Shown here: piece after piece, positions 23,126 through 52,337 of the stretch | Numbering within the stretch: position 1 is the first letter of the stretch | Layout of the letters: the number at the start of each line of letters is the position of its first letter | Assembly (NCBI GenBank): GCA_009777355.1 | Contig: WRMA01000002.1 | Coordinates: 1-55,928 of the forward strand | From: Oscillospiraceae bacterium | GTDB lineage: Bacteria > Bacillota > Clostridia > Oscillospirales > WRJC01 | Direction: 5' to 3' | DNA: 55,928 nucleotides | Position numbers and translations under genes: made by a program | The notes under the pieces: model-generated | The model's database searches: none | What the model was told of the DNA's origin: nothing | What the model saw: only the letters and a program-made list of their open reading frames with translations

Positions 23126-23262
23126 TAGACCTCTTGCGAAATTAAAATCCTGATTGTAGGGGCGCGCATTGCGCGTCCGCAAAACCAACGTAATTTTGAC
23201 ATCTTTCAGACGGACGGCCAATGGCCGCCCCTACATGGTAACATGATTTCGCGAGAGGTCTA
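23126..23262. mobile_element. MITE-like palindromic element, family 1 (TIR + REPIN core)
   Basis: The TIRs TAGACCTCTTGCGAAAT and ATTTCGCGAGAGGTCTA match at 16 of 17 positions. They enclose GTAGGGGCGCGCattGCGCGTCCGC and CGGACGGCCaatGGCCGCCCCTAC. Near-identical copies are at 27603 and 30463, and cores alone are at 39073 and 49032. Confidence 0.6.
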
Positions 23263-23269
23263 ATTAATT

Positions 23270-24733
23270 TTATCTGAAGAAAAACGAGAATATTCCTCCC
23301 GGTTTTTTCTGCTCCGCGTTATATTCGAGCATCGAGTTAAGCATTTCGACCGACTGCGCCCTGTCAAGAAATCCTCCCGGGTTTACGTTGCCGTTTTCGT
23401 CGCCTTTTATTATTCCGGCGGAGCTTAACGCAGCTATATCTCCCTCCGCCCATTCGGGTATAAACACGGCGTCGACAAACACGGAATCTGATATATTATT
23501 TCTTACTGAAGCCGAATCGGGATTGATTTTCAATATATTATTGAGCATTACGGCGGCTTCCGCCCTGATTATTATACTGTTCGGGTCGAAATAAAGCCCG
23601 ACGTCCGTTTCTATGCCTTTGATTATTCCCAGTTCGTAGGCTTTTGTAACATAGGGCTTATATTTAAACGGAATATCAGCGTCGTCCGCGAAGCCGGTTC
23701 TGAACACTTCGGACATATTTTTGTCGAGTTTCGCGGCCCTTATTATCATCTCCGTAAATTCCGCTCTCGTCATGAGGACGTCTGGTTCAAATAACAGGCC
23801 GGGATTGTTTTTGTCCGCGTCGATAAATCCCGCGGCGGCGGCTTTGACTGCGGAGTTTGCCGCCCAGTGTTCGTCCATGTCGGCAAACCTTACGCTGCTC
23901 GCCGCTTTCGTGATTTTGATTTGCGCGGTCGCGGGGTTTGAGAGATTGCCGTATTTATCCTCGACCTGATAGACGAAGCTGTCTTTGCCCGTGTAATCCC
24001 TGCCCGGCCTGTAAACGAAATGTCCGTTTGTCACGTCTATAACTTCAAGAAGTCCTTTTTTGGGTCCCTGGACTATTCTGTAGGTTATGTCGTCGTTGTC
24101 GGGGTCGGTTCCGTCCATCGATTTAAAAACGGGGATATTTTTCTGGGTCGTGAGGGTTATCGCCTTTGCGGCGGGAGCGAAGTTAAGAGATTCGAGAACT
24201 GAAACGCTGCATCTTATCGACGAATTTTCAGACGAGTCTTCGGCGTTCCTGAAAGTAAAACTGATTTCGCCGACCCTGTTGGGATACGGCACGAGCCTGA
24301 TATACTGTATATTCTCTCTGGATATAGTCTGCCCGGGGAGAATATCTCCGCCGCCGAGGGTTAAAACGCCTTCTGAAAAACGGGGCAGGTCTGTAATCGT
24401 TACGGAGCCGAGTTTTTTCACTCCGAGAATTTTCTCAAATTCTTCGGGTCTGAAAGTAATATCGCTGTTTAGCAGAGCGGATTTTTTAAGCTCGAGACGG
24501 TTTCTTATGATATTTAATCCGTGGGAGAGGGGAGCGGTTTCGCTGCGTACGGGAACGGAGACGCTCTCTCCTACCGTGCTCGATACCCTGACGTAGCTTT
24601 CGTAATTTTCCCCCGCGCTCGAATTAACGAGTCCCCCGGCCGACGCGGGGATTGCCGCCGCGAGAAAACAAATAACGGCGAGCGCCGTTATCAGGCGGTT
24701 TTTAAGCTTGATTTTGATTTTTTGATTCTTCAT
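23270..24733 (-). CDS. Surface protein with cadherin-like/Ig-like repeat and three SLH segments
   Basis: There is a signal peptide. DPDNDDITYRIVQGPKKGLLEV...FVYRPGRDYTGKDSFVYQVEDKYGN is cadherin-like/tandem-95-like. The SLH-like segments are FADMDEHWAANSAVKAAAAGF, FADDADIPFKYKPYVTKAYELGIIKG and IPEWAEGDIAALSSAGIIKGDENGN. Confidence 0.8.
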   Translation of the reverse strand: MKNQKIKIKLKNRLITALAVICFLAAAIPASAGGLVNSSAGENYESYVRVSSTVGESVSVPVRSETAPLSHGLNIIRNRLELKKSALLNSDITFRPEEFEKILGVKKLGSVTITDLPRFSEGVLTLGGGDILPGQTISRENIQYIRLVPYPNRVGEISFTFRNAEDSSENSSIRCSVSVLESLNFAPAAKAITLTTQKNIPVFKSMDGTDPDNDDITYRIVQGPKKGLLEVIDVTNGHFVYRPGRDYTGKDSFVYQVEDKYGNLSNPATAQIKITKAASSVRFADMDEHWAANSAVKAAAAGFIDADKNNPGLLFEPDVLMTRAEFTEMIIRAAKLDKNMSEVFRTGFADDADIPFKYKPYVTKAYELGIIKGIETDVGLYFDPNSIIIRAEAAVMLNNILKINPDSASVRNNISDSVFVDAVFIPEWAEGDIAALSSAGIIKGDENGNVNPGGFLDRAQSVEMLNSMLEYNAEQKKPGGIFSFFFR

Positions 24734-25025
24734 AATATAAATTCAGCCTCCGATTTTCTAAAATAAAAATAATAAATTTATGTTTTTTAATATTATTTTA
24801 TACTTTTTTTAGAATAATATTCCTTTTTGTCTATTTTTATGCAAAAAAATTTTTTATTATTTTTATAATTTATGTTAGAAAAGATAGTTTTGAATTGTAT
24901 GTATATACAGACGCGTCAAAAAAAATATATATTTCGGAGGGAGTTGGTCTATTATAAACACATCGAACGCTTATAATAAAATTAATATAATCGAATCTAA
25001 TTTAATAGAAAAGAAGTTTGAAAAC

Positions 25026-25535
25026 ATGAAAACGGACGAAGGTTTTTATCAGAGATATAATCCGCAGATACGCAAAATCGTGTCGAGAATATTAAATCAT
25101 GCGGGATTAAACGGCGATATTGACGACTGCGTGAACACGGTTTTTCTCGATATTATGGAAAAGTTAAGTCAGTATAACGAAACCCGCGGAACTATGGCGG
25201 CTTTTGTCGCGGTGATTGCGAGGTCCGCCGCTTTAAACTACTGCAAAAGCGGCGCGCGGAGAAAAAGCGAGCTTATCGGCGACGAAAAGCTTGATTTTTT
25301 AGCCGGCCCGCTGGGTTATGACGACGAGACTGAGTTTGATTCGCTCGTCGGGAATATAATCGCGAGGCTTAACCAAAAAGAGAGGGTTTTATTTTCAATG
25401 AGGTATTTATACTATTACGCGCCGGAAGAAATCGCCGCGGCTTTAAAAATCCGCAGGAGCGCCGTCGATATGAGAGTAAGCCGGCTCAAAAGCAAAATCA
25501 GGAGTTTTCTCACCAAAGGAGGGGTAATCATATGA
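25026..25535 (+). CDS. ECF-type sigma-70 family RNA polymerase sigma factor
   Basis: Region 2 (DDCVNTVFLDIMEKLSQYNETRGTMAAFVAVIARSAALNY) and region 4 (LNQKERVLFSMRYLYYYAPEEIAAALKIRRSAVDMRVSRLKSKI) are recognisable. Confidence 0.85.
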   Translation: MKTDEGFYQRYNPQIRKIVSRILNHAGLNGDIDDCVNTVFLDIMEKLSQYNETRGTMAAFVAVIARSAALNYCKSGARRKSELIGDEKLDFLAGPLGYDDETEFDSLVGNIIARLNQKERVLFSMRYLYYYAPEEIAAALKIRRSAVDMRVSRLKSKIRSFLTKGGVII

Positions 25536-26647
25536 ATAAAAAATATTTTACGGACGCATTGAACGAACAAACGATAATCGATTTGACGGCTGAAATGCTG
25601 AAGGAGGAAAACATGAATAAAAATATGGCGAAACCAAGAATTAAATCTATGCTGTTTAAGATAATACCCGCGGCGGCGATGTTCGCTTTGGTCATAGGCT
25701 TAATAAATATACTGCCGGGGATTTTAAATAATAATAATAACATAGATATGCCGGGAGCGTATATTCCGCGAGAAGAAGAGCAAACGGAACCGTTCGTAAC
25801 GCAGAGAAATATGTTCCTGCCGCAGTTTGTCGAAAAGACGTTTTTCGAAGAGAAAATAATCGCGGCTATACCCGAGGGAAGAGAACGCGACAAAATAATG
25901 GCCTATTATTCCGAAGCGTTTACGAAACCGACGGCCGCTATGTTTGCGGAGAATATATCAAACGGAATAATTACGACGTATTCGTTAAGCGAAGGCAACG
26001 CAAATCAGTTTTATGAGCTTGACAAATATATCACCGAGAGAGAACACGGTCTGCCTTTAGAGATTCTTATCAGATATACTGACTTAACCGGAAATGATTT
26101 AATGCAGATGTACGAAGATTACGGCGTGATTATAACAGAAACGCCCGACCCGTACAGTCACGTGAGATTCGGCGAAACAAGAGATATATTACTGCTTGAC
26201 ATTGAGTGGCACACTTATGAAACATACTTGGAAGAAGTAATTGAAGGACTCGGGTTAAACATTCGCGGAGAGCTTGAGAGAATTGCCAACAACAGCTGGT
26301 ACTCTACAAGAATTATAAACGGAAAACATTTTGAATATCTTGCTGAAGGTGTTTTTTCCCGCGATACGGATGACATACAACAATTTCTTGATTCCGACGG
26401 ATATTACAGATTTGAAATTTATCCCTCTGGAGGGAATCTGGTATATACCGACGGCGACGGAGAAACTAAAATCAAAAAATTTACTGTCACAAACTCAAAA
26501 CGTCAGTATGACCGAGTATTAGAAGAAGAAATAATCCCGTTCTGCGGCGAGCTTTTAGAACAGGGATTGCTAACTCGGGAAAAGTATGATTATTATACGA
26601 AAACCAGAGGGAATCTTTTGGATTATTATATTGGCTTGTATTTTTAG
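25532..26647 (+). CDS. Putative anti-sigma factor / single-pass membrane protein
   Basis: Its start overlaps the sigma stop (ATGA). There is one TM segment at about residues 40-62, followed by a large extracytoplasmic domain. There is no ZAS motif. The role is inferred from context only. Confidence 0.45.
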   Translation: MNKKYFTDALNEQTIIDLTAEMLKEENMNKNMAKPRIKSMLFKIIPAAAMFALVIGLINILPGILNNNNNIDMPGAYIPREEEQTEPFVTQRNMFLPQFVEKTFFEEKIIAAIPEGRERDKIMAYYSEAFTKPTAAMFAENISNGIITTYSLSEGNANQFYELDKYITEREHGLPLEILIRYTDLTGNDLMQMYEDYGVIITETPDPYSHVRFGETRDILLLDIEWHTYETYLEEVIEGLGLNIRGELERIANNSWYSTRIINGKHFEYLAEGVFSRDTDDIQQFLDSDGYYRFEIYPSGGNLVYTDGDGETKIKKFTVTNSKRQYDRVLEEEIIPFCGELLEQGLLTREKYDYYTKTRGNLLDYYIGLYF

Positions 26648-26707
26648 AAATCATACCAATATGCAAACGAAATAAATCTTTCTGCCTGTCGGACAGACAG
26701 GCGCTAT

Positions 26708-26932
26708 GTAGGGCGCGGCTTCCATGCCGCGCCGTGAATTTTAATCCAACGTCGTCCGCGCTATGTAGGGCGCGACGCCCTCGTCACGACGCGAATTTAC
26801 CGTAGGCATAACGGTTTTCACGCGGCGCGCCGAGGGCGTCGCGCCCTACGAGATAATATCAAAACATCATCAAATATTTTTGCGGCATTTGCCCTATTGT
26901 TTTTACGGCGCGGCATGGAAGCCGCGCCCTAC
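26708..26932. repeat. Nested pair of REPIN-like doublets (A-B-B'-A')
   Basis: A is GTAGGGCGCGGCttccatGCCGCGCCG (26708-26734). B is GTAGGGCGCGACGCCCTCGtcacgacgcg (26765-26793). B' (26821-26849) and A' (26906-26932) are their inverted copies. A and B share the 5' flank GCGCTAT. Confidence 0.7.
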
Positions 26933-26961
26933 TTGACAACAAATATTTTTTATGTTATATT
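26933..26961 (+). promoter_or_regulatory. Sigma-A-type promoter for bioY, directly abutting the REP module
   Basis: TTGACA (26933-26938) starts 1 nt after ...CCCTAC. A 17-nt spacer contains TGt, followed by TATATT (26956-26961). Confidence 0.55.
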
Positions 26962-27008
26962 TATACCCACTTAAATTTTATAATATAATTTCCGGAGGAT
27001 TTTTGATT

Positions 27009-27605
27009 TTGAAACAAAAAACAAGAAAATTAAGCGTAAGGCTTACGATACGCAATATCTGCTATATCTCCCTGTTTGCGGCGGCGATTGCCGTATGCGC
27101 GCAGATTATTATACCCATGCCCGCCGTGCCGTTCACTTTGCAGACGTTCGCGGTACCTCTGGCGGGGATTATTCTCGGCGCGAAAAAAGGAACGCTCGCC
27201 GTTCTCGTTTATATTTTACTCGGCATGACGGGCGTTCCTGTGTTCGCGGGATTCCGGGGAGGTTTCGGCGTTATTTTCGGCGCGACCGGAGGATTTATTT
27301 TATCTTTCCCCGTTATGGCTCTAATCGCGGGGATTTTTTCAGACCTCCAGAATAAATTTAAACTTAAACTTAAAAATATACGCCTGAGAATATTATTTCT
27401 CGCGTGCGGGCTTATTTTAGGCGCAGGGTTAAATTACATATGCGGTCTTCTGTTCTTCTGTTACATAACTTCGAGAAGTCTCGGCGAGGCGTTCGCTTTA
27501 TGCGTTACCCCGTTTCTTCTGCCTGATACGCTTAAAATAATACTTGCCGGCGGAATAGGCGTAAGCGTAAGAAATATTCTCGTAAGAAATAAAATCCTTG
27601 ATTAG
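27009..27605 (+). CDS. bioY: Biotin transporter BioY
   Basis: FTLQTFAVPLAGIILGAKKGTLAVLVYILLGMTGVPVFAG..GGFILSFP is typical of BioY. GGAGGA (26994-26999) lies 9 nt before in-frame TTG 27009. The track start at 26952 would fall inside the promoter. Confidence 0.8.
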   Translation: MKQKTRKLSVRLTIRNICYISLFAAAIAVCAQIIIPMPAVPFTLQTFAVPLAGIILGAKKGTLAVLVYILLGMTGVPVFAGFRGGFGVIFGATGGFILSFPVMALIAGIFSDLQNKFKLKLKNIRLRILFLACGLILGAGLNYICGLLFFCYITSRSLGEAFALCVTPFLLPDTLKIILAGGIGVSVRNILVRNKILD

Positions 27606-27711
27606 ACCTCTTGCGAAATTAAAATCCTGATTGTAGGGGCGCGCATTGCGCGTCCGCAAAACCAACGCGGTTTTGACGTTTTTCTGACGGACGGCCAATG
27701 GCCGCCCCTAC
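27603..27711. mobile_element. Family-1 element, right TIR missing (truncated)
   Basis: TAGACCTCTTGCGAAATTAAAATCCTGATT plus both GTAGGGG/CCCCTAC modules are nearly identical to 23126-23234. No ATTTCGC..GGTCTA end follows. The first three bases form the bioY stop codon. Confidence 0.6.
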
Positions 27712-28007
27712 GTCATTAACCCGAGAATAAACTGAACAGAGACCTGAAAGAAGTCAGAACCGCGGCGCATATAAGGGTGCAGTAAGACACGAGCATAAAT
27801 AATTTAAGCGCGGACTTGACTCTTTGACTTCTGAACGGCCGGGACAGTTTTAACAGTTTGTTTTTTATTTTCAATTTAATTTCCAAAATAGTTTACCTCC
27901 ATGAAACATATAAAAATATTTATATATATATTTTTCTCTTTATTTCTGGAGTTTATACTATTTTTTTCTTATAATTCTAAATAATACTTATTTATTTTGA
28001 ATTAAAG

Positions 28008-28055
28008 CGCTCCGCGTTTCATATATTTAAATTATAAATTATAAAACGCGGAGCG
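28008..28055 (+). promoter_or_regulatory. Perfect 12-bp stem occluding the Shine-Dalgarno sequence of the M23 peptidase gene
   Basis: CGCTCCGCGTTT (28008-28019) pairs with AAACGCGGAGCG (28044-28055) across a 24-nt AT-only loop. GGAG (28050-28053) is the SD, 7 nt before ATG 28061. Confidence 0.5.
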
Positions 28056-28060
28056 GATTT

Positions 28061-29146
28061 ATGACGTCTTTTAAAATATCGGTTAAAAATAACGTGAAAT
28101 TATTTGTTTTTGTTTGCTTTACTGCGGTAATATCCGGGGGGTTATTTGTAAATTACGCCTTTTTGCATAATCGCGGCGATAATTACGGGGATATACTCCC
28201 GGTTCTGGAGAGCGGCGGCGAATATATAAAGTGGATGGAATTTAATTTAAAGCTCTCCACTTTGCAGAAAGCCCTGAAATACGATATCGATTCAAATTCA
28301 AACGGGGGAGAGACCCCGCTCAACTGGATTGAGCTCATGTCTTACGCGGCCGCGAAAAACTGGGGCAACGTTAAAGACGAGAAAAAAATAAACAGAGACA
28401 TTGACGATTTGGTTAAACAGCTCCGGAACGGCAAAACAATAGAGGAGCTTACTGAAAATAATAATAATCTGAAATTATACGGTTATTATTACGAGACGTT
28501 TTACGCGGTTCTCAACGGCTTCGTCGGGGATTATGAATTAATAGAAACTTCGCCGGAGAATCCCGGGGAGGAGATTTTAACCAGAAAATACGGCTTGAAA
28601 GTCTTTTCGCCGATTGCCAGAGGTTACGGTTACTCCCATTACGACGATTTCGGCAACTCCCGTTCGTTCGGCTACAGGCGAAAGCATTTGGGGAACGATT
28701 TACTCGGGAGCGTGGGCACGCCGATTATCGCCGTCGAGGACGGATACATAGAAGCTATGGGCTGGAACAGATTCGGCGGCTGGCGTATCGGCATAAGAAG
28801 CCATGATAATCAGAGATATTATTATTACGCGCATTTAAGAAAAGGTCATCCGTTTGCCGGCGGACTCAAAGAAGGCGGGTTTGTTCAGGCGGGCGACGTC
28901 ATAGGCTATCTGGGCATGACGGGATACAGCTCAAACGAAGATACCAATAATATACAAATACCCCATCTTCACTTCGGATTACAGATTATATTCGACGAAT
29001 CGCAGAAAGACGGGATTAATCAAATATGGGTCGACGTTTATAATATAGTCAAACTTCTCGAGGGTAACAGAATGGCGGTCGGGAAAACGGCCGACGGAAA
29101 AGAATGGCAGAGAGCGAGAAATATAAATAATATAGTCACGGATTAG
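28061..29146 (+). CDS. M23-family metallopeptidase, membrane-anchored
   Basis: HLGNDLLGSVGTPIIAVEDG, GWRIGIRSHD, and GYLGMTGYSS...PHLHFGLQ (the HxxxD / HxH signatures) are present. There is an N-terminal TM segment. Confidence 0.85.
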   Translation: MTSFKISVKNNVKLFVFVCFTAVISGGLFVNYAFLHNRGDNYGDILPVLESGGEYIKWMEFNLKLSTLQKALKYDIDSNSNGGETPLNWIELMSYAAAKNWGNVKDEKKINRDIDDLVKQLRNGKTIEELTENNNNLKLYGYYYETFYAVLNGFVGDYELIETSPENPGEEILTRKYGLKVFSPIARGYGYSHYDDFGNSRSFGYRRKHLGNDLLGSVGTPIIAVEDGYIEAMGWNRFGGWRIGIRSHDNQRYYYYAHLRKGHPFAGGLKEGGFVQAGDVIGYLGMTGYSSNEDTNNIQIPHLHFGLQIIFDESQKDGINQIWVDVYNIVKLLEGNRMAVGKTADGKEWQRARNINNIVTD

Positions 29147-29148
29147 CA

Positions 29149-29179
29149 GGGGCGATTGATAATCGCCCCCCGTTTTTTT
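29149..29179 (+). terminator. Intrinsic terminator
   Basis: GGGGCGATTgatAATCGCCCC is followed by ccgTTTTTTT. The stem resembles the GCGAT-type REP module at 23026. Confidence 0.8.
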
Positions 29180-29281
29180 ATGTTTAAATTTTGATTATAT
29201 AATAAAAATTAATAGATTGTACAAGAAATATATCAAAATATTATATATACTGAAAATAAGTAAATAAATTTAAATATATAC

Positions 29282-29499
29282 GAGTTACGCAGTTGGTTTA
29301 AATCTGCTCCAAAGCCCTCTTTTTTAAAGAGGGTGGCGCGCGGAGATGTTATTTTGATTGAGGCATTGGCGTAAAATCCGCGCGACGGGTGTTTTGAAAT
29401 TTGACGCTGCCGAGGGGAGACAGAAACACCCGCCGTCTGCGGACGGCACCCTCTTTACGAAAGAGGGCAAAGATAGTAAATACATCAAGCGCGTAACTC
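29282..29499. mobile_element. Palindromic element, family 3
   Basis: The ends are GAGTTACGC and GCGTAACTC. Internal local hairpins are GCCCTCTTttttaAAGAGGGT and CCCTCTTTacgAAAGAGGG, plus the shared blocks GACGGGTG and CACCCGCCGTCTGCGGACGGCACCC. Copies are at 45014 and 52061. Confidence 0.6.
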
Positions 29500-29520
29500 A
29501 GGATATAAAAAAGAGAAAAT

Positions 29521-30441: not shown

Positions 30442-30462
30442 TTGATAGTTAATAGACTTCTT

Positions 30463-30589
30463 GTGAAACTGCATTACCATGTAGGGGCGGCCATTGGCCG
30501 TCCGTCCGAAAAACATCAAAACTGTGTTAATTTTACGGACGCGCAATGCGCGCCCCTACAATCAAGATTCTAATTTCGCAAGAGGTCTA
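30463..30589. mobile_element. Family-1 element, inverted orientation
   Basis: TAGACTTCTTGTGAAAC ... ATTTCGCAAGAGGTCTA. The core is GTAGGGGCGGCCattGGCCGTCCG ... CGGACGCGCaatGCGCGCCCCTAC, the reverse complement of the 23126 copy. Confidence 0.6.
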
Positions 30590-30611
30590 ATATTAAACGG
30601 AGGTTTTTATT

Positions 30612-32305: not shown

Positions 32306-32379
32306 AAGCAAATAAACAAATTTATTTATTTTATATTTTTATATTTTTATATTTTTTATTTATAGGGGGAAAATTTAAA

Positions 32380-33902: not shown

Positions 33903-34060
33903 TAGACCTCTTTTAAAACCGAAATACGACCACCCCGCCCTTCGGGCACCCCTCCGCGGAGGGGAATTAATAAAACGGCGGAGTTGAGTGAAAATTCCCC
34001 TCCGTGGAGGGGTGGCGCGGCGCGTAAGCGGCGTGACGGGGTGGTTTTGAAAGAAGTCTA
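33903..34060. mobile_element. Palindromic element, family 2
   Basis: The termini TAGACCTCTTTTAAAAC and GTTTTGAAAGAAGTCTA match at 15 of 17 positions. Inner arms are GACCACCCCG and CGGGGTGGT. Local hairpins are CCCCTCCgcGGAGGGG, CCCCTCCgtGGAGGGG and GCCGCgtaaGCGGC. Copies are at 46488 and 48867. Confidence 0.65.
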
Positions 34061-38344: not shown

Positions 38345-39073
38345 ATGCATAATCAGAATCATGAAGAAATACTGATGAAAAAAGAAAAAAGAAAGAAAAT
38401 CCTTAAAATTATAGTTCTTTCGGTAACCGGCGTTTTTCTGTTGTCCTTCCTGACGATTTTTATTTTGTCGGCGGTTCAGAACTATATAAACGACAGGGAA
38501 ACCGCAAAAATCGAAGAGGAAAATATCTGGGCGGGACCGTTCCCCGAAGCGAACTACGGATTTAATATCTTTGACGACGCCGCGTATCTGGAACTCGACA
38601 GGAATATCCGGTTCAACGACGGAGGAACCGTGACGGTCATGACCGAAGAAAACAAAAGCTCCTACGCGCCCGAGCTGCAGTTCATGTACGACGCGATTAA
38701 TCTTATAATAAACGGCGACTATACGGAATACAACAAAATCTTCACGGAAGATTATATCGCCGCCGCGGGCGATAATCTGCCGGAGCGCTTTACGATGCAG
38801 CAGCTTTTTGAGATAGAGCTCGAATATCTGGGCAACACCGGACACGCGGGTCATAATCACGCCGGTCAGGTTAATCCCGCAAGCCGTCTCGATATAGACA
38901 TACAGCTGACCTATAAAATAAGAAACAACAACGGAACGTTCAGAAACGACCTCGATTTCGACGCTTCTTATTCCCGCGCCGTCGTTTATATGCTGGTCGC
39001 AGAACCGGACGGCTCCGATATAAAAGTCGATAAGATTCTTACGCAGAGACAGTACGAATCCGGACGGTTTTAG
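38345..39073 (+). CDS. Hypothetical membrane-anchored protein (242 aa)
   Basis: A basic N-terminus and one TM segment (ILKIIVLSVTGVFLLSFLTIFIL) precede a soluble domain. I recognise no family. The last base of its TAG stop is the G of a GTAGGGG module. Confidence 0.5.
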   Translation: MHNQNHEEILMKKEKRKKILKIIVLSVTGVFLLSFLTIFILSAVQNYINDRETAKIEEENIWAGPFPEANYGFNIFDDAAYLELDRNIRFNDGGTVTVMTEENKSSYAPELQFMYDAINLIINGDYTEYNKIFTEDYIAAAGDNLPERFTMQQLFEIELEYLGNTGHAGHNHAGQVNPASRLDIDIQLTYKIRNNNGTFRNDLDFDASYSRAVVYMLVAEPDGSDIKVDKILTQRQYESGRF

Positions 39074-39151
39074 TAGGGGCGCGCATTGCGCGTCCGCAGA
39101 ACCGACGTATTTTTAATGTTTTTCAAACGGACGGCCAATGGCCGCCCCTAC
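39073..39151. repeat. REPIN-like doublet (family-1 core without TIRs)
   Basis: GTAGGGGCGCGCattGCGCGTCCGC (39073-39097) and CGGACGGCCaatGGCCGCCCCTAC (39128-39151). It is wedged between two convergent CDS and overlaps both. Confidence 0.7.
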
Positions 39152-43994: not shown

Positions 43995-45002
43995 ATGGAG
44001 AAACTGAAAAATTCGCGGCAGAAGACCCCGTTAGTAACGCATATTTTTACCGCCGACCCTTCGGCCCATGTGTTCGACGGTAAAATTTATATTTATCCCT
44101 CGCATGATTTAGACCTCGACGTTCCCGACGACGAAAACGGCGAACAATATCAAATGAAAGATTATCATGTACTGTCAATGGACGATATAGGCGCGCCCGT
44201 TACCGACTGCGGCTGCGCGCTGCATGTCGACGACGTTCCGTGGGCGAAAGGTCAGATGTGGGCTCCCGACGCGGCTTATAAAAACGGCAGATATTATTTT
44301 TATTTCCCCGCGAAAGACAAAGACGGGATATTCAGAATAGGCGCCGCGACAGGCGACAACCCCGAGGGGCCGTTTAAAGCCGAACCGGATTATATCCCCG
44401 GAACTTTCAGTATCGACCCGGCAATATTCGTCGACTGCGACGGCAGGGCGTATATTTATTTAGGCGGCATTTGGGGAGGACAGCTCGAAAAATGGCGTAC
44501 GGGAGTTTTCGACCCGAACGCTCCCCATCAGAACCCGAAAGGGGATTCTTTAGACAACGACCCCGCTATAGGAGTATATATCTCTGAATTGAACGACGAT
44601 ATGCTGACTTTAAAAGAGCCGTTAAGAGAAGTTAAGATACTCGGCGAAGATAATAAACCCCTGACTGTAGCAGACACAGACAAGAGATTTTTCGAAGCTC
44701 CCTGGATGCATAAATATAATAATAAATATTATCTGTCCTATTCTACCGGAGAAACGCATTATCTCTGCTATGCCGAAAGCGAGAGCCCGACCGGGCCGTT
44801 TAAATATAAAGGCAGGATTTTAGAACCCGTCAAAGGCTGGACGACGCATCAGTCTATTATAGAGTTCAAGAACAAATGGTATCTGTTTTATCACGACGCG
44901 GCGATTTCCGGGATAAGCCACCAGAGAAACGTCATGTTCAGAGAGCTTGAAATCGGCGAAGACGGAACTATTAAAACAATAAATCCTTATGACGGGGATT
45001 AA
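43995..45002 (+). CDS. GH43-family glycoside hydrolase (beta-xylosidase/arabinofuranosidase-like)
   Basis: FTADPSAHVFDGKIYIYPSHD, MWAPDAAYKNGRYYFYFPAKD, FSIDPAIFVD and FEAPWMHKYNNKYYLSYS are five-bladed-propeller motifs. Confidence 0.85.
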   Translation: MEKLKNSRQKTPLVTHIFTADPSAHVFDGKIYIYPSHDLDLDVPDDENGEQYQMKDYHVLSMDDIGAPVTDCGCALHVDDVPWAKGQMWAPDAAYKNGRYYFYFPAKDKDGIFRIGAATGDNPEGPFKAEPDYIPGTFSIDPAIFVDCDGRAYIYLGGIWGGQLEKWRTGVFDPNAPHQNPKGDSLDNDPAIGVYISELNDDMLTLKEPLREVKILGEDNKPLTVADTDKRFFEAPWMHKYNNKYYLSYSTGETHYLCYAESESPTGPFKYKGRILEPVKGWTTHQSIIEFKNKWYLFYHDAAISGISHQRNVMFRELEIGEDGTIKTINPYDGD

Positions 45003-45013
45003 ATCAAAATTAA

Positions 45014-45213
45014 CAGACTTCTTGCATAACTTAAAAATCTGCAGAGAAAGCCCTCTTTTTTAAAGAGGGTGGCAGTCGCGTAAGCGGCTGACGGGTGTTT
45101 CGTACCCAAAGCCCCCTTTGTAAAAGGGGGCTAAACACTCGCCGTCTGCGGACGGCACCCTCTTTACGAAAGAGGGCAAGGAAATTAGATTTCGTAGTTA
45201 TGCAAGAAGTCTA
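45014..45213. mobile_element. Palindromic element, family 3 core with family-1-like termini
   Basis: The termini are (C)AGACTTCTTGCATAACT and AGTTATGCAAGAAGTCTA. The core carries GCCCTCTTttttaAAGAGGGT, GCGTAAGCGGCTGACGGGTG, GCCCCCTTTgtaAAAGGGGGC and CGCCGTCTGCGGACGGCACCCTCTTTacgAAAGAGGG. Confidence 0.6.
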
Positions 45214-45248
45214 ACAAATAAAAAAATAAATACGGGAGAAGAAATATT

Positions 45249-46415
45249 ATGAAAGAAATATTATCACGGCGCGAACGGGTCATGCGAGCGGTCGAACGCA
45301 GGCCAGTCGACAGAACCCCGATTGACCTCGGAGTTCACTATTCCACCGGTATTTCGGCTTACGCTTACCAGAATCTTCGCGAATATTTAAACATGCCGAA
45401 GAAAAAAATCGAAGTAATCGACAGTTTTCAGTTTCTCGCAAGGGTAGACGAAGATATCCTCGAGAGATTTCACTGCGACTGTATGCTGTTTCACCCCGGT
45501 TATCCCACTACGAAAACATGGCGTCCGCGTGAACACTACGAATTTGAGATTTCGGGAGCGATTAACCCGACCCTCGAGGACGACGGCGCGTGGATTTTTT
45601 CGGGGAACGACGAAAATAACCCCGGACGAATGAAAAGTCCGGCGGGGGGATATTTTTTCGACGGCTGGGGATTCGACACGTGGGCGAGCAGTCTTGATTT
45701 CAACACGGAAGTCGCGAAGTACGCCGAGAAAATATACAAAGAAACGGATTATTTTACGCTTTACGTCGGCGGAGGCAGCGGATATTTTTCGGACAATCCG
45801 GATTATCTGGTTAAATTAATGCTCGAACCCGAAGAAATAAAAAAAGACTGCGAGAATCAATATAACTGGAGTATAAAATCGACGGCCGATATAATAGAAA
45901 AATGCGGGGGATATATCCAGGGATTATGCCTCGGGTCTGATTTGGGAACGCAGACTGCGGCTTTCGTGAACCCGAAGATTTACGCCGATTTAATCGCGCC
46001 GCAGCTTAAAAAATACATAGATTTCGTTAAGGCAAATTCAGACTATAAAATCTTTTTTCATTCGTGCGGAGCGATGGAGCCGTTTATTCAGATATTAATA
46101 GAGTGCGGGGTCGATATTTTAAACCCGGTTCAGGTGAGCTGCAAAAACATGGAGCCGTTCGAACTGAAGAAAAAATACGGGGATAAAATATGCTTCTGGG
46201 GAGGAGGCTGCGACACTCACGGAGCGTTCGGCAAACCAACGGGAACACCCGGAGAAGTCGCGGAAAACGTAAGATATCTGATGTCCGCTCTCGCGCCGTC
46301 AAGCGGATTTGTGTTCAATCAGGTGCATAATATAATGGGCGACGTCAAACCGGAAAATATAGTCGCGATGCTCGATACCGCATACGAAGAGAGTTTCAAA
46401 TACGGGAATCTATAA
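45249..46415 (+). CDS. Uroporphyrinogen-decarboxylase (URO-D) family protein, MtaA/CmuA-like
   Basis: It is 388 aa. The N-terminus RRERVMRAVERRPVDRTPIDLG and the overall layout resemble URO-D-family methyltransferase-like proteins. A GGGAGAAG RBS is present. Confidence 0.65.
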   Translation: MKEILSRRERVMRAVERRPVDRTPIDLGVHYSTGISAYAYQNLREYLNMPKKKIEVIDSFQFLARVDEDILERFHCDCMLFHPGYPTTKTWRPREHYEFEISGAINPTLEDDGAWIFSGNDENNPGRMKSPAGGYFFDGWGFDTWASSLDFNTEVAKYAEKIYKETDYFTLYVGGGSGYFSDNPDYLVKLMLEPEEIKKDCENQYNWSIKSTADIIEKCGGYIQGLCLGSDLGTQTAAFVNPKIYADLIAPQLKKYIDFVKANSDYKIFFHSCGAMEPFIQILIECGVDILNPVQVSCKNMEPFELKKKYGDKICFWGGGCDTHGAFGKPTGTPGEVAENVRYLMSALAPSSGFVFNQVHNIMGDVKPENIVAMLDTAYEESFKYGNL

Positions 46416-46487
46416 ATTTACCCAAAATTAATAAATAAATCATATAATTACAATAATTGCGATAATATTTATGTTATAATATTATAT

Positions 46488-46653
46488 TAGACTTCTTGAA
46501 AAACCGAGATACGACCACCCCGCCGTCTGCGGACGGCACCCCTCCACAGAGGGGAATGAGTAAGAAAACGCCGGAGCAGAGTGGAAATTCCCCTCCGTGG
46601 AGGGGTGGCGCGACGCGTAAGCGGCGTGACGGGGTGGTTTTGAAAGAAGTCCA
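46488..46653. mobile_element. Palindromic element, family 2
   Basis: TAGACTTCTTGAAAAAC...GACCACCCCGCCGTCTGCGGACGGCACCCCTCCacaGAGGGG...CCCCTCCgtGGAGGGGTGGCGCGACGCGTAAGCGGCGTGACGGGGTGGTTTTGAAAGAAGTCCA. Confidence 0.65.
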
Positions 46654-46691
46654 TTGAATAAATAAAGAAAAGAAGAGGGGGAATATATAAA

Positions 46692-48812
46692 ATGGACCGC
46701 AGCGTTCGTCTTGCGACGACTTATTACCGTAATTTCGTTCTGCTCGTCGTTCTTCCCCTTCTGGTTACTATAGGACTCGCTCTCTGGTTTCTCCGGGGGA
46801 ATACCCTCGATTCTTCCGTCGATAAAATAGAGCTCGCGCAGCATAATATAATAGCCGCGCTGATAAGCGACGTCGAAAACGCGGTCCTGCAGTTCGGTCA
46901 TCTTCTGGAAACCGGAGGAGGACGTCTCCAGGAATTATCTTCGCGGGTTTTTGCGGCTTCCGGGCAGGAAAGGGACGAAGCTATGGCTGAACTTCTCGAG
47001 TTTTACGAGCTTATTTCCCCTCCCGGATTAAAAAATATCGCCGCCGTTCATTTCTACGCGAAGAACGCAAGCTATTTTAACATAAAAGCTCCCGTGGGCG
47101 AGAATACCAGAATAAGAACTATACGCGCGTCTCAGTTTTACGCCGAAACGCTTAAACAGCCCGGAAAAGTCCATATCGGACTTACCGGAGGAGATATCGT
47201 ACAACAGGAAAGGACGTCGTTCGACGGCGACGGCTATGCTCCGCCCCTTATAACGGTCTCTTACGCGCCCCTCCCGAAAGACTTGGAAGCTGAGAGTGAG
47301 GACGGGAGTATTAATAGTGACGAAGACCTGACTGAATTAATCTGCTTTTACATCACGACCCGGGCGTATGAAATGCTCCGAAATTTCGGAAACGAACCGG
47401 GTCAGGGCGATATTTATCTGATAGACGAGCGCAGGGAAATTATTATGACCTCCGCTTTAGGACATATGGGCGAGGTTAATCTGCCGGATAATATACCCTG
47501 GACGAGCAGGACTTACTCGGCCGTTATCGACGGAGGCCAGTATTCGTGTATCGTACGGGTAATAGAGGACGATTATCTTAACATAAACTGGAAACTTGTC
47601 AGCATAGTCGGATACGGCGCGCTTCTCGCGGACTTCAACCGGATTGCTCTCGTCGTCGCCGGCATCAGCATATTGCTGTTTATCCTGTATTTTATATTCT
47701 CCGCGAGATTCCTGAAAAATATCGTCAGACCCTTGCACAGTTTAATTTCAGGCATGGAAAAAATGGAGCAGCAGACCGGAAAAGGCGATTTAGCGGTATA
47801 CGTCGAACTCAGCGGACAGCGCGAGATGAGGGAGCTTATAGGTTCTTTCAACGAGATGACGTCGCACATAGGCGACCTTATGCGTATAAAAGAAGGCATA
47901 TTCAAAGCGTCTCCCGTCGGTCTGATAATGTTCGGCGGCGAGTATAATATTATCGACTGCAACGAGACCCTGCTGGAAATGTTCGGAGTCGCCAAAAGCT
48001 ATTATTTCAGTAATTATGATAAATTCTCTCCGGAATACCAGCCGGACGGCTCGAACTCGAAAGATAAGTTCGGGGAGATTATGAAGCGCGCCCTGAACGG
48101 AGAGGAAGTCGTGACCGAATGGCTGTTCAGGAGCGGCGAGACCGGCGGCGGAGAGTCGGCGATACCCTGCGAGATTACGCTTTCCCGGACGGAAATGGGA
48201 GGGAAATATACCGGGCTGGGTTTCGTATACGACCTCCGCAGCATAAAGAGCATGGAGAATAATATACGCTTTCTCGAATCTGAGGTCGATAAGATAAATT
48301 ACGACGCGCTTACCGGGATTTATAACAGACGCTATTACGACAAGCAATTAGAGCTCGTTATAAAATCCCTTTCCAGGGCGGGAGGTACGCTCAGCCTTAT
48401 GATGATTGACGTGGACTGTTTTAAGCAGTACAACGACCAATACGGCCACAGCCAGGGCGACGACTGCCTGAGAGCCGTCGCGAAAACCCTCAAAGAAACC
48501 GTTACGAGAGCGGACGATTTCGCCGTCAGATACGGCGGCGAGGAATTTTCGGTCGTCCTGCCCAACACGGACGAAAAAGGCGCGGGGATAATCGCCGGGG
48601 AAATCCTCGAAAACATACGCAAACTGAATATTATCCACGAATACACGAAAGTCGAGGGAGTAAATTACATAACCGTTTCGATAGGCGTAACGACTGGAGT
48701 CGTCGGCCGCTCCCATAAAAGCGGCGATTACATAAAGCGCGCCGACGCAATGCTGTATCACGCGAAACACTCCGGACGAAACAGATACGCTTCCGGTCCG
48801 GTACGGGAATAA
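46692..48812 (+). CDS. Membrane sensor diguanylate cyclase (periplasmic sensor - HAMP - PAS - GGDEF)
   Basis: Two TM segments flank an extracytoplasmic domain of about 270 aa. A HAMP-like linker and a PAS-like region (FKASPVGLIMF) follow. The GGDEF domain has YGGEEF and an RxxD I-site (RADD) 5 residues upstream. Confidence 0.85.
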   Translation: MDRSVRLATTYYRNFVLLVVLPLLVTIGLALWFLRGNTLDSSVDKIELAQHNIIAALISDVENAVLQFGHLLETGGGRLQELSSRVFAASGQERDEAMAELLEFYELISPPGLKNIAAVHFYAKNASYFNIKAPVGENTRIRTIRASQFYAETLKQPGKVHIGLTGGDIVQQERTSFDGDGYAPPLITVSYAPLPKDLEAESEDGSINSDEDLTELICFYITTRAYEMLRNFGNEPGQGDIYLIDERREIIMTSALGHMGEVNLPDNIPWTSRTYSAVIDGGQYSCIVRVIEDDYLNINWKLVSIVGYGALLADFNRIALVVAGISILLFILYFIFSARFLKNIVRPLHSLISGMEKMEQQTGKGDLAVYVELSGQREMRELIGSFNEMTSHIGDLMRIKEGIFKASPVGLIMFGGEYNIIDCNETLLEMFGVAKSYYFSNYDKFSPEYQPDGSNSKDKFGEIMKRALNGEEVVTEWLFRSGETGGGESAIPCEITLSRTEMGGKYTGLGFVYDLRSIKSMENNIRFLESEVDKINYDALTGIYNRRYYDKQLELVIKSLSRAGGTLSLMMIDVDCFKQYNDQYGHSQGDDCLRAVAKTLKETVTRADDFAVRYGGEEFSVVLPNTDEKGAGIIAGEILENIRKLNIIHEYTKVEGVNYITVSIGVTTGVVGRSHKSGDYIKRADAMLYHAKHSGRNRYASGPVRE

Positions 48813-48866
48813 TATACCTCCTGCGAAATCACGTTATACCAAATCGCGAAAAAAATAAACATTTAT

Positions 48867-49029
48867 TAGACCTCTTTCAAAACTGAAATACGACCACCCC
48901 GCCGTCTGCGGACGGCACCCCTCCACGGAGGGGAATTAATAAAACGGCGGAGTTGAGTGAAAATTCCCCTCTGGGGAGGGGTGGCGCGCCGCGTAAGCGG
49001 CGTGACGGGGTGGTTTTGAAAGAAGTCCA
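48867..49029. mobile_element. Palindromic element, family 2
   Basis: TAGACCTCTTTCAAAAC ... GTTTTGAAAGAAGTCCA has the same block order as the 33903 and 46488 copies. A family-1 core follows directly. Confidence 0.65.
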
Positions 49030-49031
49030 TT

Positions 49032-49111
49032 GTAGGGGCGGCCATTGGCCGTCCGTCTGAAAAACGTCAAAATCATATTAGATTTTGCGGACGCGCAATG
49101 CGCGCCCCTAC
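49032..49111. repeat. REPIN-like doublet (family-1 core without TIRs)
   Basis: GTAGGGGCGGCCattGGCCGTCCG ... CGGACGCGCaatGCGCGCCCCTAC. Confidence 0.7.
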
Positions 49112-49118
49112 AATAACA

Positions 49119-49152
49119 CAAAAAAGGCGCGGCAGTAATAATTGCCGCGCCC
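49119..49152 (-). terminator. Intrinsic terminator of the PEPCK gene
   Basis: On the minus strand, GGCGCGGCAattattacTGCCGCGCC is followed by TTTTT. Confidence 0.8.
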
Positions 49153-49176
49153 CGTTATATTAATTTTTAATTAATT

Positions 49177-50976
49177 TTAAGAGAGTCTTTTTTCGAGGGC
49201 GTCGAGCTGTTCGGAGAGCTCTTCGGGAAGTCTGTCCCCGAATTTTTTATAGTTTTCTTTGATTGAAACGATTTCTTCGAGCCACGACGCTTTGTCTACG
49301 TCAAGGATTTTCGCCAGAGACTCTTCGCTGATTTTGTCTTCTATGCCGCAGAGGTCAATCGCTCCCGGCGCGGGAAGATTGCCTATGGGGGTTTCGACCG
49401 CTTCGCCGATTCCCGAAAGTCTCTCTACTATCCATTTGAGGACGCGGCTGTTTTCGCCGAACCCGGGCCATATAAACTTATCGTTCTCGTCTTTTCTGAA
49501 CCAGTTGACGAAATATATTTTAGGCAGTTTGCCGGAGTCTGATTTTTTGCCGGTATTAAGCCAGTGCTGTAAATAATCCCCTGTGTGATAACCCATAAAC
49601 GGAAGCATCGCGAACGGGTCGCGGCGTACTCCCGCGGCGAGTCCGATAGCCGCGGCCGTAGTCTCCGAACCCATAATAGAACCCAGAAATACCCCGTGAT
49701 TCCAGTCGAGGCTCTCGTTTACCAGCGGAATCGTTCCCCCTCTGCGTCCGCCGATTAGAATCGCCGAAATCGGCACTCCCGCGGGGTCTTCCCATTCGGG
49801 CGCTATAGACGGGCACTGCGCGGCGGGGCTCGTGAAGCGCGCGTTCGCGTGGGCGGCCGGTCTGCCGCAGTCCGGAGTCCAGTCGTTGCCCTCCCAGTCG
49901 ATTAGATGCTCCGGCGCGGGGATTCCGCCGCCCTCCCACCATACGTCTCCGTCGTCCGTGAGTCCGACGTTCGTAAATATAGTATCCCTCTCTATTTGTT
50001 TCATCGCGTTGGGATTAGACTGCGCCGAAGTTCCCGGAACTACGCCGAAAAATCCGGCTTCGGGATTAATCGCGTAAAGCCTGCCGTCCTCGCCGAACTT
50101 CATCCACGCGATATCGTCGCCTATAGTCTCGACTTTCCAGCCCGGAAGCGTCGGGACGACCATCGCGAGATTCGTTTTGCCGCAGAAACTCGGCAGCGCG
50201 CCGCATATATAATAAACTTTTCCGGCGGGGTCGGTAATTTTAAGTATAAGCATATGCTCGGCGAGCCAGCCTTCGTCTCTCGCCTGTACTCCGGCGATTC
50301 TCAGAGCGAAGCATTTTTTGCCGAGGAGCGCGTTTCCGCCGTATCCCGAACCGTAAGACCAAATCGTTCTCTCTTCGGGGAAATGGCTTATATATTTCTG
50401 GTCAATCGACGGGGCGCACGGCCACGACGAATCTTTTTCGCCGTCATTGAGAGGTTTGCCGACCGAGTGTATGCACCTGACGAACTCGCCGTCAGCCCCG
50501 AGAGCGCCGAGAACTTTTTCGCCGATTCTCGTCATAATCGCCATGTTTATTACGACGTACGGGCTGTCGCTTATTTCGACGCCGATTTTCGAGATGGGCG
50601 AACCAATCGGACCCATCGAAAACGGTATAACGTACATGACTCTGCCTTTCATGCAGCCGTCGTAAAGTTTTCTCATATCCGCCTTTAATTCCTCGGGGTC
50701 GACCCAGTTGCAGTCAGGGCCCGCGTCCTCCTGTTTTTTCGACGCTATAAAAGTCCTGTTTTCGACCCGCGCGACGTCCGACGGGTGACTCCTGAAAAGA
50801 AAACAGCCCGGACGTTTTTCGGGATTGAGCGCCGTAGCCAGACCCGCGTCAATCATAATCTGCAGCATTTTATTATATTCTTCTTTCGAGCCGTCGGCGA
50901 TATGAACGCTGTCGGGCTTGCACATTTCCCTTACTTCTTCTATCCATGCGGCGAGTTCTTTGTGTTTCAAATTCAT
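49177..50976 (-). CDS. pckG: Phosphoenolpyruvate carboxykinase (GTP)
   Basis: It is 599 aa. [37 protein letters not shown] and FFGVVPGTS are GTP-PEPCK signatures. Confidence 0.95.
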
Positions 50977-51091
50977 CTTTACTTACTCTCCTTATTCAAC
51001 CTTAAAAAAATTATTAATATTATATATTATATTATTAAGGCTTGCTTGTCAATAGGCAAAAGTGAATTTTTTATTAATATTTCTATAATAT

Positions 51092-51904
51092 TTATTTCTT
51101 ATTTCCCGAACGTTTCGTTTTGTTCTTCGCTTTTTTCTGTTCTTCGCGGCACATTCTTTTAAGCTCGTTCAGCGCGTCCGAAAGACCGCCTATTTTATTA
51201 ATCAAGCCCGTTTCGACGGCCGTCTCGCCCTCTATGATACTTCCGACGTCGGCGGCAAGCTCGCCCGTGCTGAACATAAACTCCGTTAATTTTTCCTCGC
51301 TTATATCAGAATGGCGCACTATAAATTTATTTATCCTCTCCTGCATTTTGGTAAAATAAGAAAAACTCTGTTCGACGCCTATGACAAGGCCGTTCATTCT
51401 TACGGGGTGGACGGTCATCGTCGCGCTGGGGACTATAAACGATTTTCTCGCGGACACGGCGAGAGGCACGCCGATTGAGTGGCCTCCTCCGAGAACGAGA
51501 GACACAGTCGGTTTTTTCATCGACGCGAGCATTTCGGCTATCGCGAGACCCGCCTCGACGTCTCCTCCGACCGTGTTTAAAATAATAAGCAGACCGTCGG
51601 TTTCGGGGTTTTCCTCTATCGCGACGAGATGGGGTATAATATGCTCGTATTTGGTCGTCTTATTATTCGACGGCAGAAGATAATGACCCTCTACCTGACC
51701 TATAATAGTAAGACTGTTTACGCTTACCCCGCCTTCTTTCGTGGCAATTATACCGGTCTGGTTTATATTATTAATCTGCGTTTCCCTGGTCTGCTCCTCC
51801 GTTAAATCCCCGTTTTCCGTTTCCGTATCGGTTTCAGAGGGAATATCGGGAATAAAATCCTGATTTTTAAAACTATTATATTTTTTATTTTTATTTTTCG
51901 GCAT
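51092..51904 (-). CDS. tepA: ClpP-fold protein, TepA-like
   Basis: IIGQVEGH......[65 protein letters not shown] is typical of the TepA/ClpP class. Confidence 0.7.
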
Positions 51905-52017
51905 GATTTAATATCCTCTTGAATTTTCATTAATATATATTTTTATATATATTATTTGTTCTTTGCCGAAAAATTATTTATATTTTAAAAATACTAATAC
52001 CAAATTGCAATTAAAAT

Positions 52018-52337
52018 GTAGGGCGCGGCGACCCCGACGCGCCGCCGTTAAAAACTACAAGTTACGCAACCGGTTTAAATCTGCTCCAAAGCCCTCTTTT
52101 TTAAAGAGGGTGGCAGTCGCGTAAGCGGCTGACGGGTGTTTTTGAAATTTGATGCTGCGCGAGGGGAGACAAAAACACCCGCCGTCTGCGGACGGCACCC
52201 TCTTTACGAAAGAGGGCAAAGATGGTAAATACGTCGAGCGCGTAACTCGTGAAAACCAACGTAAATTCGCATCGCGCCGTAAAAAACCGCCGGCATTGGG
52301 TTGGAATCCCCGGCGCGTCGGGGGCGCCGCGCCCTAC
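52018..52337. repeat. Composite: family-3 element (52061-52246) nested inside a REPIN-like doublet
   Basis: The outer pair is GTAGGGCGCGGCGaccccgaCGCGCCGCC (52018-52046) and its inverted copy (52311-52337). The inner element runs from GTTACGC... to ...GCGTAAC. The spacer motif GAAAACCAACGTAAATT matches the family-1 spacer AAAACCAACGTAATTT at 23181. Confidence 0.65.

Follow-up and report, generated by a model that had tools for sequence, protein, structure and literature searches.

Very probable ISAba27-like IS5 MITEs with interiors of other palindromic repeats in an Oscillospiraceae contig

In the bacterial interspersed mosaic elements (BIMEs) of Escherichia coli and the BOX elements of pneumococcus, a few palindromic modules are combined in variable order and orientation into intergenic mosaics. 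A comparable arrangement is seen in a contig of an Oscillospiraceae bacterium (WRMA01000002.1, positions 1 to 55,928, assembly GCA_009777355.1), the whole 55,928-nucleotide length of which is referred to here as the window. Seven palindromic copies with TAGACYTCTT ends are present in this stretch. BIMEs are unrelated in sequence and lack transposon-type ends and target duplications, unlike the window elements, which match the inverted repeats of ISAba27-like insertion sequences (ISs) of the IS5 family and have a 3-bp direct duplication at their ends. Based on this match, the seven elements are very probably MITEs (miniature inverted-repeat transposable elements), or non-autonomous derivatives of an ISAba27-like IS, in which the interior has been replaced by other palindromic repeats.

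ISAba27 belongs to the IS5 family, is known to be active, and has mainly intergenic insertions (PMC9771954, PMC5343135). The window elements resemble ISAba27-like ISs and MITEs in the inverted repeat, TAGACCTCTTGCGAAA(G/T), in the 3-bp A-W-T duplication, and in being small, non-coding, and located at AT-rich intergenic sites. They differ from ordinary IS5 MITEs in that the interiors belong to other repeat families and are neither an IS remnant nor a plain hairpin. The Nezha MITEs of Nostoc and Anabaena are 130–170 bp long and have ISNpu3-like ends (PMC3184786). Since Nostoc elements of 134–176 bp with TAGAC ends are among the matches listed from the genome scan described below, Nezha probably belongs with the ISAba27-like MITEs, to judge by size and host. 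Dimers of repetitive extragenic palindromic (REP) sequences are classed as head-to-head or tail-to-tail, which is the standard REP organization, and the GTAG-15 dimers of Anabaena variabilis and CGTC-1 dimers of Halothiobacillus neapolitanus lie inside longer conserved palindromes (Di Nocera et al. 2013, PMC3733652). In those nested dimers, the outer palindrome was not linked to an IS, whereas in the window it consists of IS5-type ends with a duplication. New here are the three types of cargo found in one shell and, possibly, the link between one cargo family and DUF559 genes; the rest are known kinds of elements. Literature searches with the literal end and block A sequences (block A is described below) gave primer coincidences or nothing.

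In the window, TAGACYTCTT with at most one mismatch is found at 18 sites, compared to 4.0 ± 2.0 in shuffled sequences, and none of 100 shuffles reaches 18. Twelve of these sites form six inverted pairs with a spacing of 137–200 bp (23126/23262, 30453/30589, 33903/34060, 45014/45213, 46488/46653, and 48867/49029). An earlier note, made from the letters of the window alone, had described seven elements that start with this motif and end, apart from a truncated copy at 27603, in its inverse. The six complete pairs agree with that description, whereas the 27603 copy lacks a canonical right end, which is lost or degenerate (AAGAAGTC at 27748–27755), and the start formerly placed at 30463 is corrected to 30453. 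All seven TAGAC-ended copies (137–200 bp) are small, non-coding, and located at unrelated sites between housekeeping genes, including those for BioY, LysR, an oxidoreductase, a solute-binding protein, MnmE, GH43, a URO-D-like protein, GGDEF, and PEPCK. The element proper, AGACYTCTT...AAGARGTCT, is flanked by a 3-bp duplication, a feature that the earlier note had proposed to look for. The duplication reads AAT/AAT at 30453 and 33903, AAC/AAC at 45014, ATT/ATT at 46488 and 48867, and GAT/AAT at 23126, and is perfect in five of the six complete elements. The CAGAC start of the 45014 copy, previously regarded as a variant terminus, is explained by the same feature: its C belongs to the AAC found on both sides.

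The termini recur far beyond the window and in many phyla. When one genome per species was scanned for TAGACYTCTT-(110–170 nt)-AAGARGTCYA, at least 120 loci were matched. Among the matches listed, the required 10 bases are followed by a further consensus, K-C-R-W-A-A-Y-T, the arms are complementary over 20–37 of 40 positions, and the hosts include Nostoc, Microcoleus, Microcystis, Chlamydiae, Rickettsiales, Wolbachia, Verrucomicrobia, Patescibacteria, archaeal bins, and termite-gut Firmicutes. By estimate, chance could produce a few hundred matches to the pattern; a chance origin was rejected on the basis of 6–8 extra consensus bases, the long arm complementarity, and the matching triplets. 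On the left, a triplet was scored from the first T and the two bases outside it; on the right, from the last A and the two bases outside it. For 123 elements among the matches listed, the second base outside each end is A in 91%, and the triplets straddling both ends are direct repeats in 96 (AAT in 44, ATT in 43, AGT in 5, and ACT in 4), with the inverted combination in only 2. A 2-bp TA duplication of the IS630-like type was rejected in favor of 3 bp, as the base outside the TA matches directly and not in inverted form. A class of uniform length (146 bp), with TAGAC ends and AAT/ATT triplets, was also observed in Rickettsia, Wolbachia, and other Rickettsiales (L105, L121, L137, L145, L146, L155, L158, L164, L168, and L169). 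The size of this class recalls the Rickettsia palindromic elements, which it would tie to IS5-type MITEs.

The identity of the ends was established from intact ISs. When a Nostoc element was used as the query against plasmids, only its ends were matched, and one of these matches abuts an annotated IS5-family transposase. This plasmid IS has the structure TAGACCTCTTGCAAAAAT...277-aa open reading frame (ORF)...TTTTTTGCAAGAGGTCTA, with TAGACCTCTTGCAAAA and TTTTGCAAGAGGTCTA as its ends and an AAT/AAT duplication, and the 277-aa protein matches NCBIfam transpos_IS5_4 (1e-53) and the Pfam domains DDE_Tnp_4 and HTH_Tnp_4. Relatives of this transposase with the same ends are found in ISAba27 of Acinetobacter (TAGACCTCTTGCGAAAGT, AAT/AAT) and in a Spiroplasma IS5 element (TAGACTTCTTGCAAAAC, ATT/ATT), so that all three intact ISs have a direct 3-bp duplication of the type seen in the window. 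The window ends read TAGACCTCTTGCGAAAT, TAGACTTCTTGCATAAC, and TAGACYTCTTTCAAAAC; the first of these, the left arm of the family-1 copy at 23126, shares 16 of 17 positions with the ISAba27 end. The ends are thus those of autonomous, transposase-encoding ISs, as represented by ISAba27, the Nostoc and Spiroplasma elements, and locus L317 from Clostridia. The earlier note had conceded that its proposal would fall if the blocks proved to be fragments of a known IS, and for the termini this is what was found. Within IS5, the 3-bp duplication and the DDE_Tnp_4 domain resemble those of the PIF/Harbinger-like branch.

Candidate partner ISs are present in related bacteria. A scan for TAGACYTCTTGCGAAAT matched many contigs of Oscillospiraceae, Ruminococcus, and Lachnospiraceae, several of them from termite-gut metagenome-assembled genomes (MAGs). 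Often only 40–150 nt separate the match from the end of its contig, which is to be expected of ISs present in multiple copies. A transposase was located beside the end by tblastn in L317 (complete, about 880 bp, with TAGACCTCTTGCGAAA at both ends), in L261 and L262 (Lachnospiraceae), in L223 and L310 (Oscillospiraceae), and in L245 and L332 (termite-gut Oscillospiraceae MAG Lab288P3bin93), where the IS is present as fragments at contig ends. Distant pairs of TAGAC ends (0.5–2.7 kb apart; L112, L200) were considered as full ISs and rejected, as they enclose ordinary genes and no transposase. Among the 30 window proteins scanned (17–55 kb), no transposase, REP-associated tyrosine transposase (RAYT), or IS200-like gene was found.

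The interior of the shell is occupied by one of three types of cargo. In family 1, two inverted copies of a GTAG head followed by a G+C-rich palindrome (GTAGGGGCGCGCATTGCGCGTCCG ... CGGACGGCCAATGGCCGCCCCTAC) form a doublet like that of REPINs. Three of the five doublets in the window lie within an IS5-type shell, none with an assigned strand. These are the copies at 23126–23262 (element proper 23127–23261, triplets GAT / AAT, doublet at 23156–23234), at 27603–27756 (canonical left end, doublet at about 27633–27711, right boundary tentative, 94% identical to 23126–23234), and at 30453–30589 (opposite in orientation to 23126, duplication AAT / AAT). The other two doublets, also without an assigned strand, have no shell and are found at 39073–39151 and at 49032–49111, the latter with the 48867 MITE on one side and a bidirectional terminator hairpin (49124–49153) on the other. 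The two halves of the doublet differ by compensated stems (GCGC-ATT-GCGC versus GGCC-ATT-GGCC). Unlike REPINs, which are mobilized by RAYTs, the three enclosed doublets could in principle be moved by a DDE transposase. Besides these doublets, the window contains two or more other REP families of the GTAG type, one as GTAGGGGCGATTATTAATCGCCC doublets and one as a cluster of GTAGGGCGCGGC-type units (23026–23103, 26708–26932, 29147–29172, 52018–52046, and 52312–52337); GTAGGGCGCGGC-type units are also present on both sides of the element at 52060.

Families 2 and 3 share a second type of unit, a 43-nt double hairpin with the order GCCGTC-TGCG-GACGGC, A, CCCYYYYY-loop-RRRRRGGG. Blocks A and B of the earlier note are present in the window, as are the hairpins CCCCTCC/GGAGGGG and CCCTCTTT/AAAGAGGG. 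A covariance model was built from the 43-nt module class only; MAFFT applied to modules of unequal length misaligned the 3′ arms. On the plus strand of the window, the model detects the module at 29426, 52175, 45135, 48895, 46516, and, weakly, 33931, and on the minus strand at 29314, 45050, and 52091. Family 3 is therefore module(−)...module(+), a tail-to-tail dimer in which the model detects both halves. In contrast, the B halves of family 2 have no model match at E ≤ 1; from a reading of the sequence and its reverse complement, family 2 is interpreted as module(+)...module(−), a head-to-head dimer closed by CCACCCCG/CGGGGTGG, with block B as a reverse-strand copy of the module that has a diverged first hairpin. 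The permuted block order that had been described is real, and is accounted for by one module in two possible arrangements of inverted copies, head to head or tail to tail, instead of by circular permutation. The module itself fits neither the GTAG nor the CGTC definition of Di Nocera et al. A CGTC-tagged REP was tested as an unpaired CGTC, an 8–9-bp stem starting with A/T pairs, a 4–5-nt loop, and a CCA tail. This assignment was rejected: in the module, CGTC lies inside the 6-bp stem GCCGTC-TGCG-GACGGC (five G-C pairs and one T-A pair), and a second hairpin follows without a CCA tail.

Three family-2 MITEs, all on the plus strand, are present in the window. Those at 46488–46653 and 48867–49029 have ATT / ATT duplications and modules at 46516–46555 and 48895–48934, respectively; in the former, the final base of the right repeat is mutated (GTCC), and the latter directly abuts the shell-less REP doublet described above. 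The third, at 33903–34060 (AAT / AAT), has the same head-to-head layout, but departs from the block A–hairpin–block B structure described for the family in that block A is absent and hairpin 1 of its left module has given way to a shorter hairpin, GCCC-TTCG-GGC, with a weak model match (14.8 bits at 33931–33965). Of the three family-3 members, also plus-strand, only that at 45014–45213 lies within an IS5-type shell (element proper 45015–45212, duplication AAC / AAC, modules − at 45050–45098 and + at 45135–45177, with an extra central hairpin). The members at 29282–29499 (modules − at 29314–29347 and + at 29426–29468, 71.1 bits) and 52060–52248 (− at 52091–52139 and + at 52175–52217) lack TAGAC termini, contrary to their earlier placement in a common group, and end in the 9-bp inverted repeat GAGTTACGC...GCGTAACTC. 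The genes on either side of the 52060 element are both on the minus strand, and REPs of the GTAGGGCGCG type flank the element. These 9-bp ends (29282–29290 / 29491–29499 and 52060–52067 / 52240–52248) correspond to the inner part of a TAGAC end variant, TAGACTTCTTGCGTAACTC (L096, L277), and their polarity in the window is opposite to that of the variant at each side.

These features can be joined in a mechanism. A DDE transposase with HTH_Tnp_4 and DDE_Tnp_4 domains, supplied in trans, would bind inverted repeats of roughly 16–20 bp (AGACYTCTTKC.WAA), excise the element, and insert it at A-W-T sites by a 3-bp staggered cut, which would leave the duplication on both sides. As only the ends would be needed for mobilization, the interior would be free to vary. 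Its replacement by GTAG-type REP doublets would give family 1, by head-to-head dimers of the 43-nt module family 2, and by tail-to-tail dimers of the same module the family-3 member at 45014. Such composites may have originated when a repeat inserted into, or recombined with, a small shell, after which the IS5 transposase would have copied the product to new sites.

Several observations weigh against this account. No ISAba27-like transposase is encoded in the 56-kb window. The duplication of the 23126 element has one mismatch (GAT/AAT), and in the full-length ISs of L317 and L259 the left triplet is AAT but the right one ATT. The six module-bearing window elements all have one strand polarity, which random DDE insertion does not predict, in what is a small sample. 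Finally, no clean empty site was found: termite metagenome orthologues of the gene at 45249 are not syntenic, and at the 46488 site of a sibling strain the interior is replaced, with no empty site.

This sibling strain is represented by contigs of one sample (ENA ERZ27257348) that are 99.3–99.9% identical to the window; exact-protein look-ups gave contigs for four of nine window proteins, all from this sample. Four elements are shared between the two strains and one interior is different. The 45014 and 27603 elements are identical, and the 48867 element and its adjoining REP doublet are conserved. At the 46488 site, the flanking genes are 99.7–99.9% identical and the two strains agree in the left junction and end (ATATTATAT|TGGACTTCTT), whereas the interior is a REP (AAAAAATCACATCGTCAATTTGTAGTGGCGGCCATTGGCCG...) and the right side consists of REPs with no TAGAC end (L216:4230–4308, L219:5440–5627). 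In the 52060 element, the central loop (52140–52160 versus L218:2950–2975) differs at 5 of 14 positions between flanks that are more than 99% identical. Compared with the genes around them, these repeats thus change far more quickly, which fits rapid turnover or the recombination between units that the earlier note had suggested.

Shell and cargo are also found apart. Exact block A is present at more than 90 loci, nearly all in termite-gut Oscillospiraceae MAGs, where it appears as solo modules, inverted dimers, and tandem arrays, and beside GTAG REPs; the 616 kb of block-A loci (106 block-A copies) contain zero TAGAC ends. In one tandem array (L084:6270–6545, Oscillospiraceae MAG Hs463_bin108), four module copies are arranged head to tail with a 76-bp period. 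Exact block A was also observed in a MAG of Chloroflexia and in a contig assigned to a Tannerella bin (L017:390–565, L089:848–897, and L076:2043–2088), within a family-2-like head-to-head dimer at L017 and as single modules at L089 and L076, which points to horizontal spread or a binning error. The family-3 core occurs twice without a shell and once within it. Conversely, related MAGs carry ordinary 150–165-bp MITEs with the same ends, as well as ends followed by REPs. Minimal elements of 36 and 34 bp were observed as well, in which two TAGAC ends stand back to back (TAGACCTCTTGCGAAATTAAAAACGCAAGAGGTCTA; L277:5511–5546, and L246 on the minus strand from 2447) and which are possibly empty shells.

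These separate occurrences could mean that the TAGAC palindromes are landing sites rather than vehicles, with REP-type repeats inserting repeatedly and composites formed in place. The 34–36-bp shells of related MAGs, the REP cargo beside TAGAC ends in other Oscillospiraceae MAGs (L329, L325), the REP-type interior behind an unchanged left junction and end at the sibling 46488 site, and the published REP dimers nested in longer palindromes (PMC3733652) would all fit such an origin. However, the three family-2 copies have identical shell–cargo junctions and subterminal sequence within different flanks, and each has its own duplication, as expected if the composite was formed once and then transposed. 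The same conclusion applies to the three family-1 copies, which are 94% identical, junctions included. Repeated insertion into fixed sites is accordingly judged unlikely, and transposition of the composites as IS5-type MITEs is preferred.

The structure of the elements bears on whether they act as DNA or as RNA. When the full elements were folded, as had been suggested, both strands of family 2 and of 45014 fold far better than shuffled sequences (z from −8 to −13). Family 2 gives −86.9 and −85.7 kcal/mol on its two strands (46488 copy, −86.9, z = −8.0), and 45014 gives −113.5 (+) and −102.3 (−) kcal/mol (+ strand z = −12.8). Across the window and loci L001–L090, the covariance model has 256 matches, on both strands across genomes. 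In the best 150 of these 256 matches (50 distinct sequences), 99.4% of cells pair, in an alignment that was fitted to the model and is biased towards pairing, and two-sided changes are found in 7 of 14 pairs. The cells with two-sided changes number 69, compared to 15.6 ± 2.8 in shuffles, none of 500 of which reaches 69, and in slid controls pairing drops to 42–72%. The proposal that stems are kept by compensatory change is thus borne out. No paired position shows one-sided variation, and G-U is found in 1 of 700 cells. This almost exclusively Watson–Crick covariation favors strict DNA complementarity over RNA.

Structured-RNA genes or cis-elements, such as 3′-untranslated-region stabilizers or regulators with ends and stems under selection for RNA folding, would agree with the very stable folds, with the 11 kcal/mol advantage of the 45014 plus strand, with the UNCG/GNRA-like loops of hairpins on the plus strand (UGCG, GUAA, and UUCG), and with the position of several copies between a stop codon and a terminator, where they would be co-transcribed. 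Against such a role, the stems vary by Watson–Crick pairs with almost no G-U in the model-fitted alignment, the 52060 copy is antisense to both neighboring genes, modules lie on both strands across genomes, and the ends are IS ends with target duplications. In addition, a search of Rfam 15 at gathering thresholds found only a tRNA and no match to the elements, and a permissive scan of 44950–49150 gave only chance-level hits (anti-hemB, 26.7 bits against a threshold of 49.5; serC, 18.7 against 35). An RNA function is therefore very unlikely, and of the selection on DNA or RNA structure that had been proposed, it is the DNA-level palindrome that the results favor. The elements were also considered as terminators and rejected, since a terminator scan does not single them out and real terminators lie beside them.

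The modularity of the elements and their common termini, as given in the earlier note, are borne out, but its single palindromic superfamily, shaped by block recombination, circular permutation, and structural selection without transposase-defined ends, is scarcely tenable: blocks common to several families, covarying stems, and interiors that differ at one site between very close strains speak for it, whereas the identification of the ends as ISAba27-like IS5 inverted repeats with duplications largely refutes it, two of three family-3 members lack TAGAC ends, the cargo families are independent and widespread without these ends, and two dimer orientations of one module account for the permuted order.

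The module has a further association. A DUF559 gene (PF04480, 1e-29 to 1e-32) is found beside modules in eight block-A loci from at least seven MAGs, and five loci from different MAGs have the arrangement module–gene–module. In L030:690–1270, L041:1–570, and L027:1960–2540, the layout is AAAACACCC-hairpin1-A-hairpin2...gene...hairpin2′-hairpin1′-GGGTGTTTT, which is the family-2 architecture with the gene replacing the loop. In L053:610–1290, L001:4160–4740, and L036:2640–3260, a family-3 layout surrounds the gene. Compensated pairs in hairpin 1 distinguish the two flanking modules, as is also the case in the window. The association was also seen in an independent test on 80 loci (L336–L415), chosen only for their homology to DUF559 proteins and derived from various gut Clostridia and a small number of other phyla. 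In this set, 67 of 71 module matches lie within 300 nt of the gene, compared to an expectation of 21.6% (binomial P about 1e-39). A module match is present in 41 loci and on both sides in 13, and 35 loci lie outside the block-A set. In a model-free test, an inverted repeat with at least 18 matches brackets 20 of 79 DUF559 genes and none in shuffled controls.

DUF559 genes thus lie between inverted copies of a repeat that is dispersed on its own as well, as in REPtrons, in which a RAYT gene is flanked by its own REPs and many gene-less copies lie elsewhere. The enclosed protein differs, being a PD-(D/E)XK-type DUF559 nuclease and not an HUH tyrosine transposase. The only solved relative of DUF559 is 3HRL, an uncharacterized “endonuclease-like protein,” and a literature search for a link between DUF559 and repeats found no relevant paper. 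Judged from sequence, this bracketing suggests that DUF559 nucleases may act on the double-hairpin modules. In related bacteria the modules are the terminal repeats around DUF559 genes, and on the preferred account families 2 and 3 are therefore gene-less versions of these units. We tentatively propose, as a possibility that falls short of an even chance, that the modules are cognate DUF559 repeats and that the bracketed gene is the autonomous unit of a widespread selfish or maintenance system in Clostridia and beyond, the gene-less derivatives of which were in this genome also captured by IS5-type shells. If true, a single short repeat could be mobile by means of two unrelated enzyme systems.

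Two further observations concern the window as a whole. The G+C content falls from about 0.55–0.60 to about 0.40–0.47 near 20.4 kb (1–20400 versus 20400–55928), a shift that may mark an island boundary or an assembly join, and the TAGAC elements and modules all lie inside the low-G+C part. In addition, an ORF at 50–1606 contains tandem coding repeats with a period of 75–81 bp at 400–740 (GGCACGGTCAGCGCGG...).

With these results, the apparent superfamily can be annotated as ISAba27-like IS5 MITEs, recognizable by their defined end and 3-bp duplication. The ends are found in many phyla, among them cyanobacteria, Chlamydiae, Rickettsiales, Clostridia, Patescibacteria, and archaeal bins, so that many unexplained intergenic palindromes could be annotated with a simple pattern. 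These repeats also break the assemblies of termite-gut MAGs. The tight bracket around DUF559 offers a testable function for a very large, uncharacterized nuclease family. Finally, MITE shells that carry other short repeats represent a layered form of mobility, which accounts for the mosaic intergenic repeats in these genomes.

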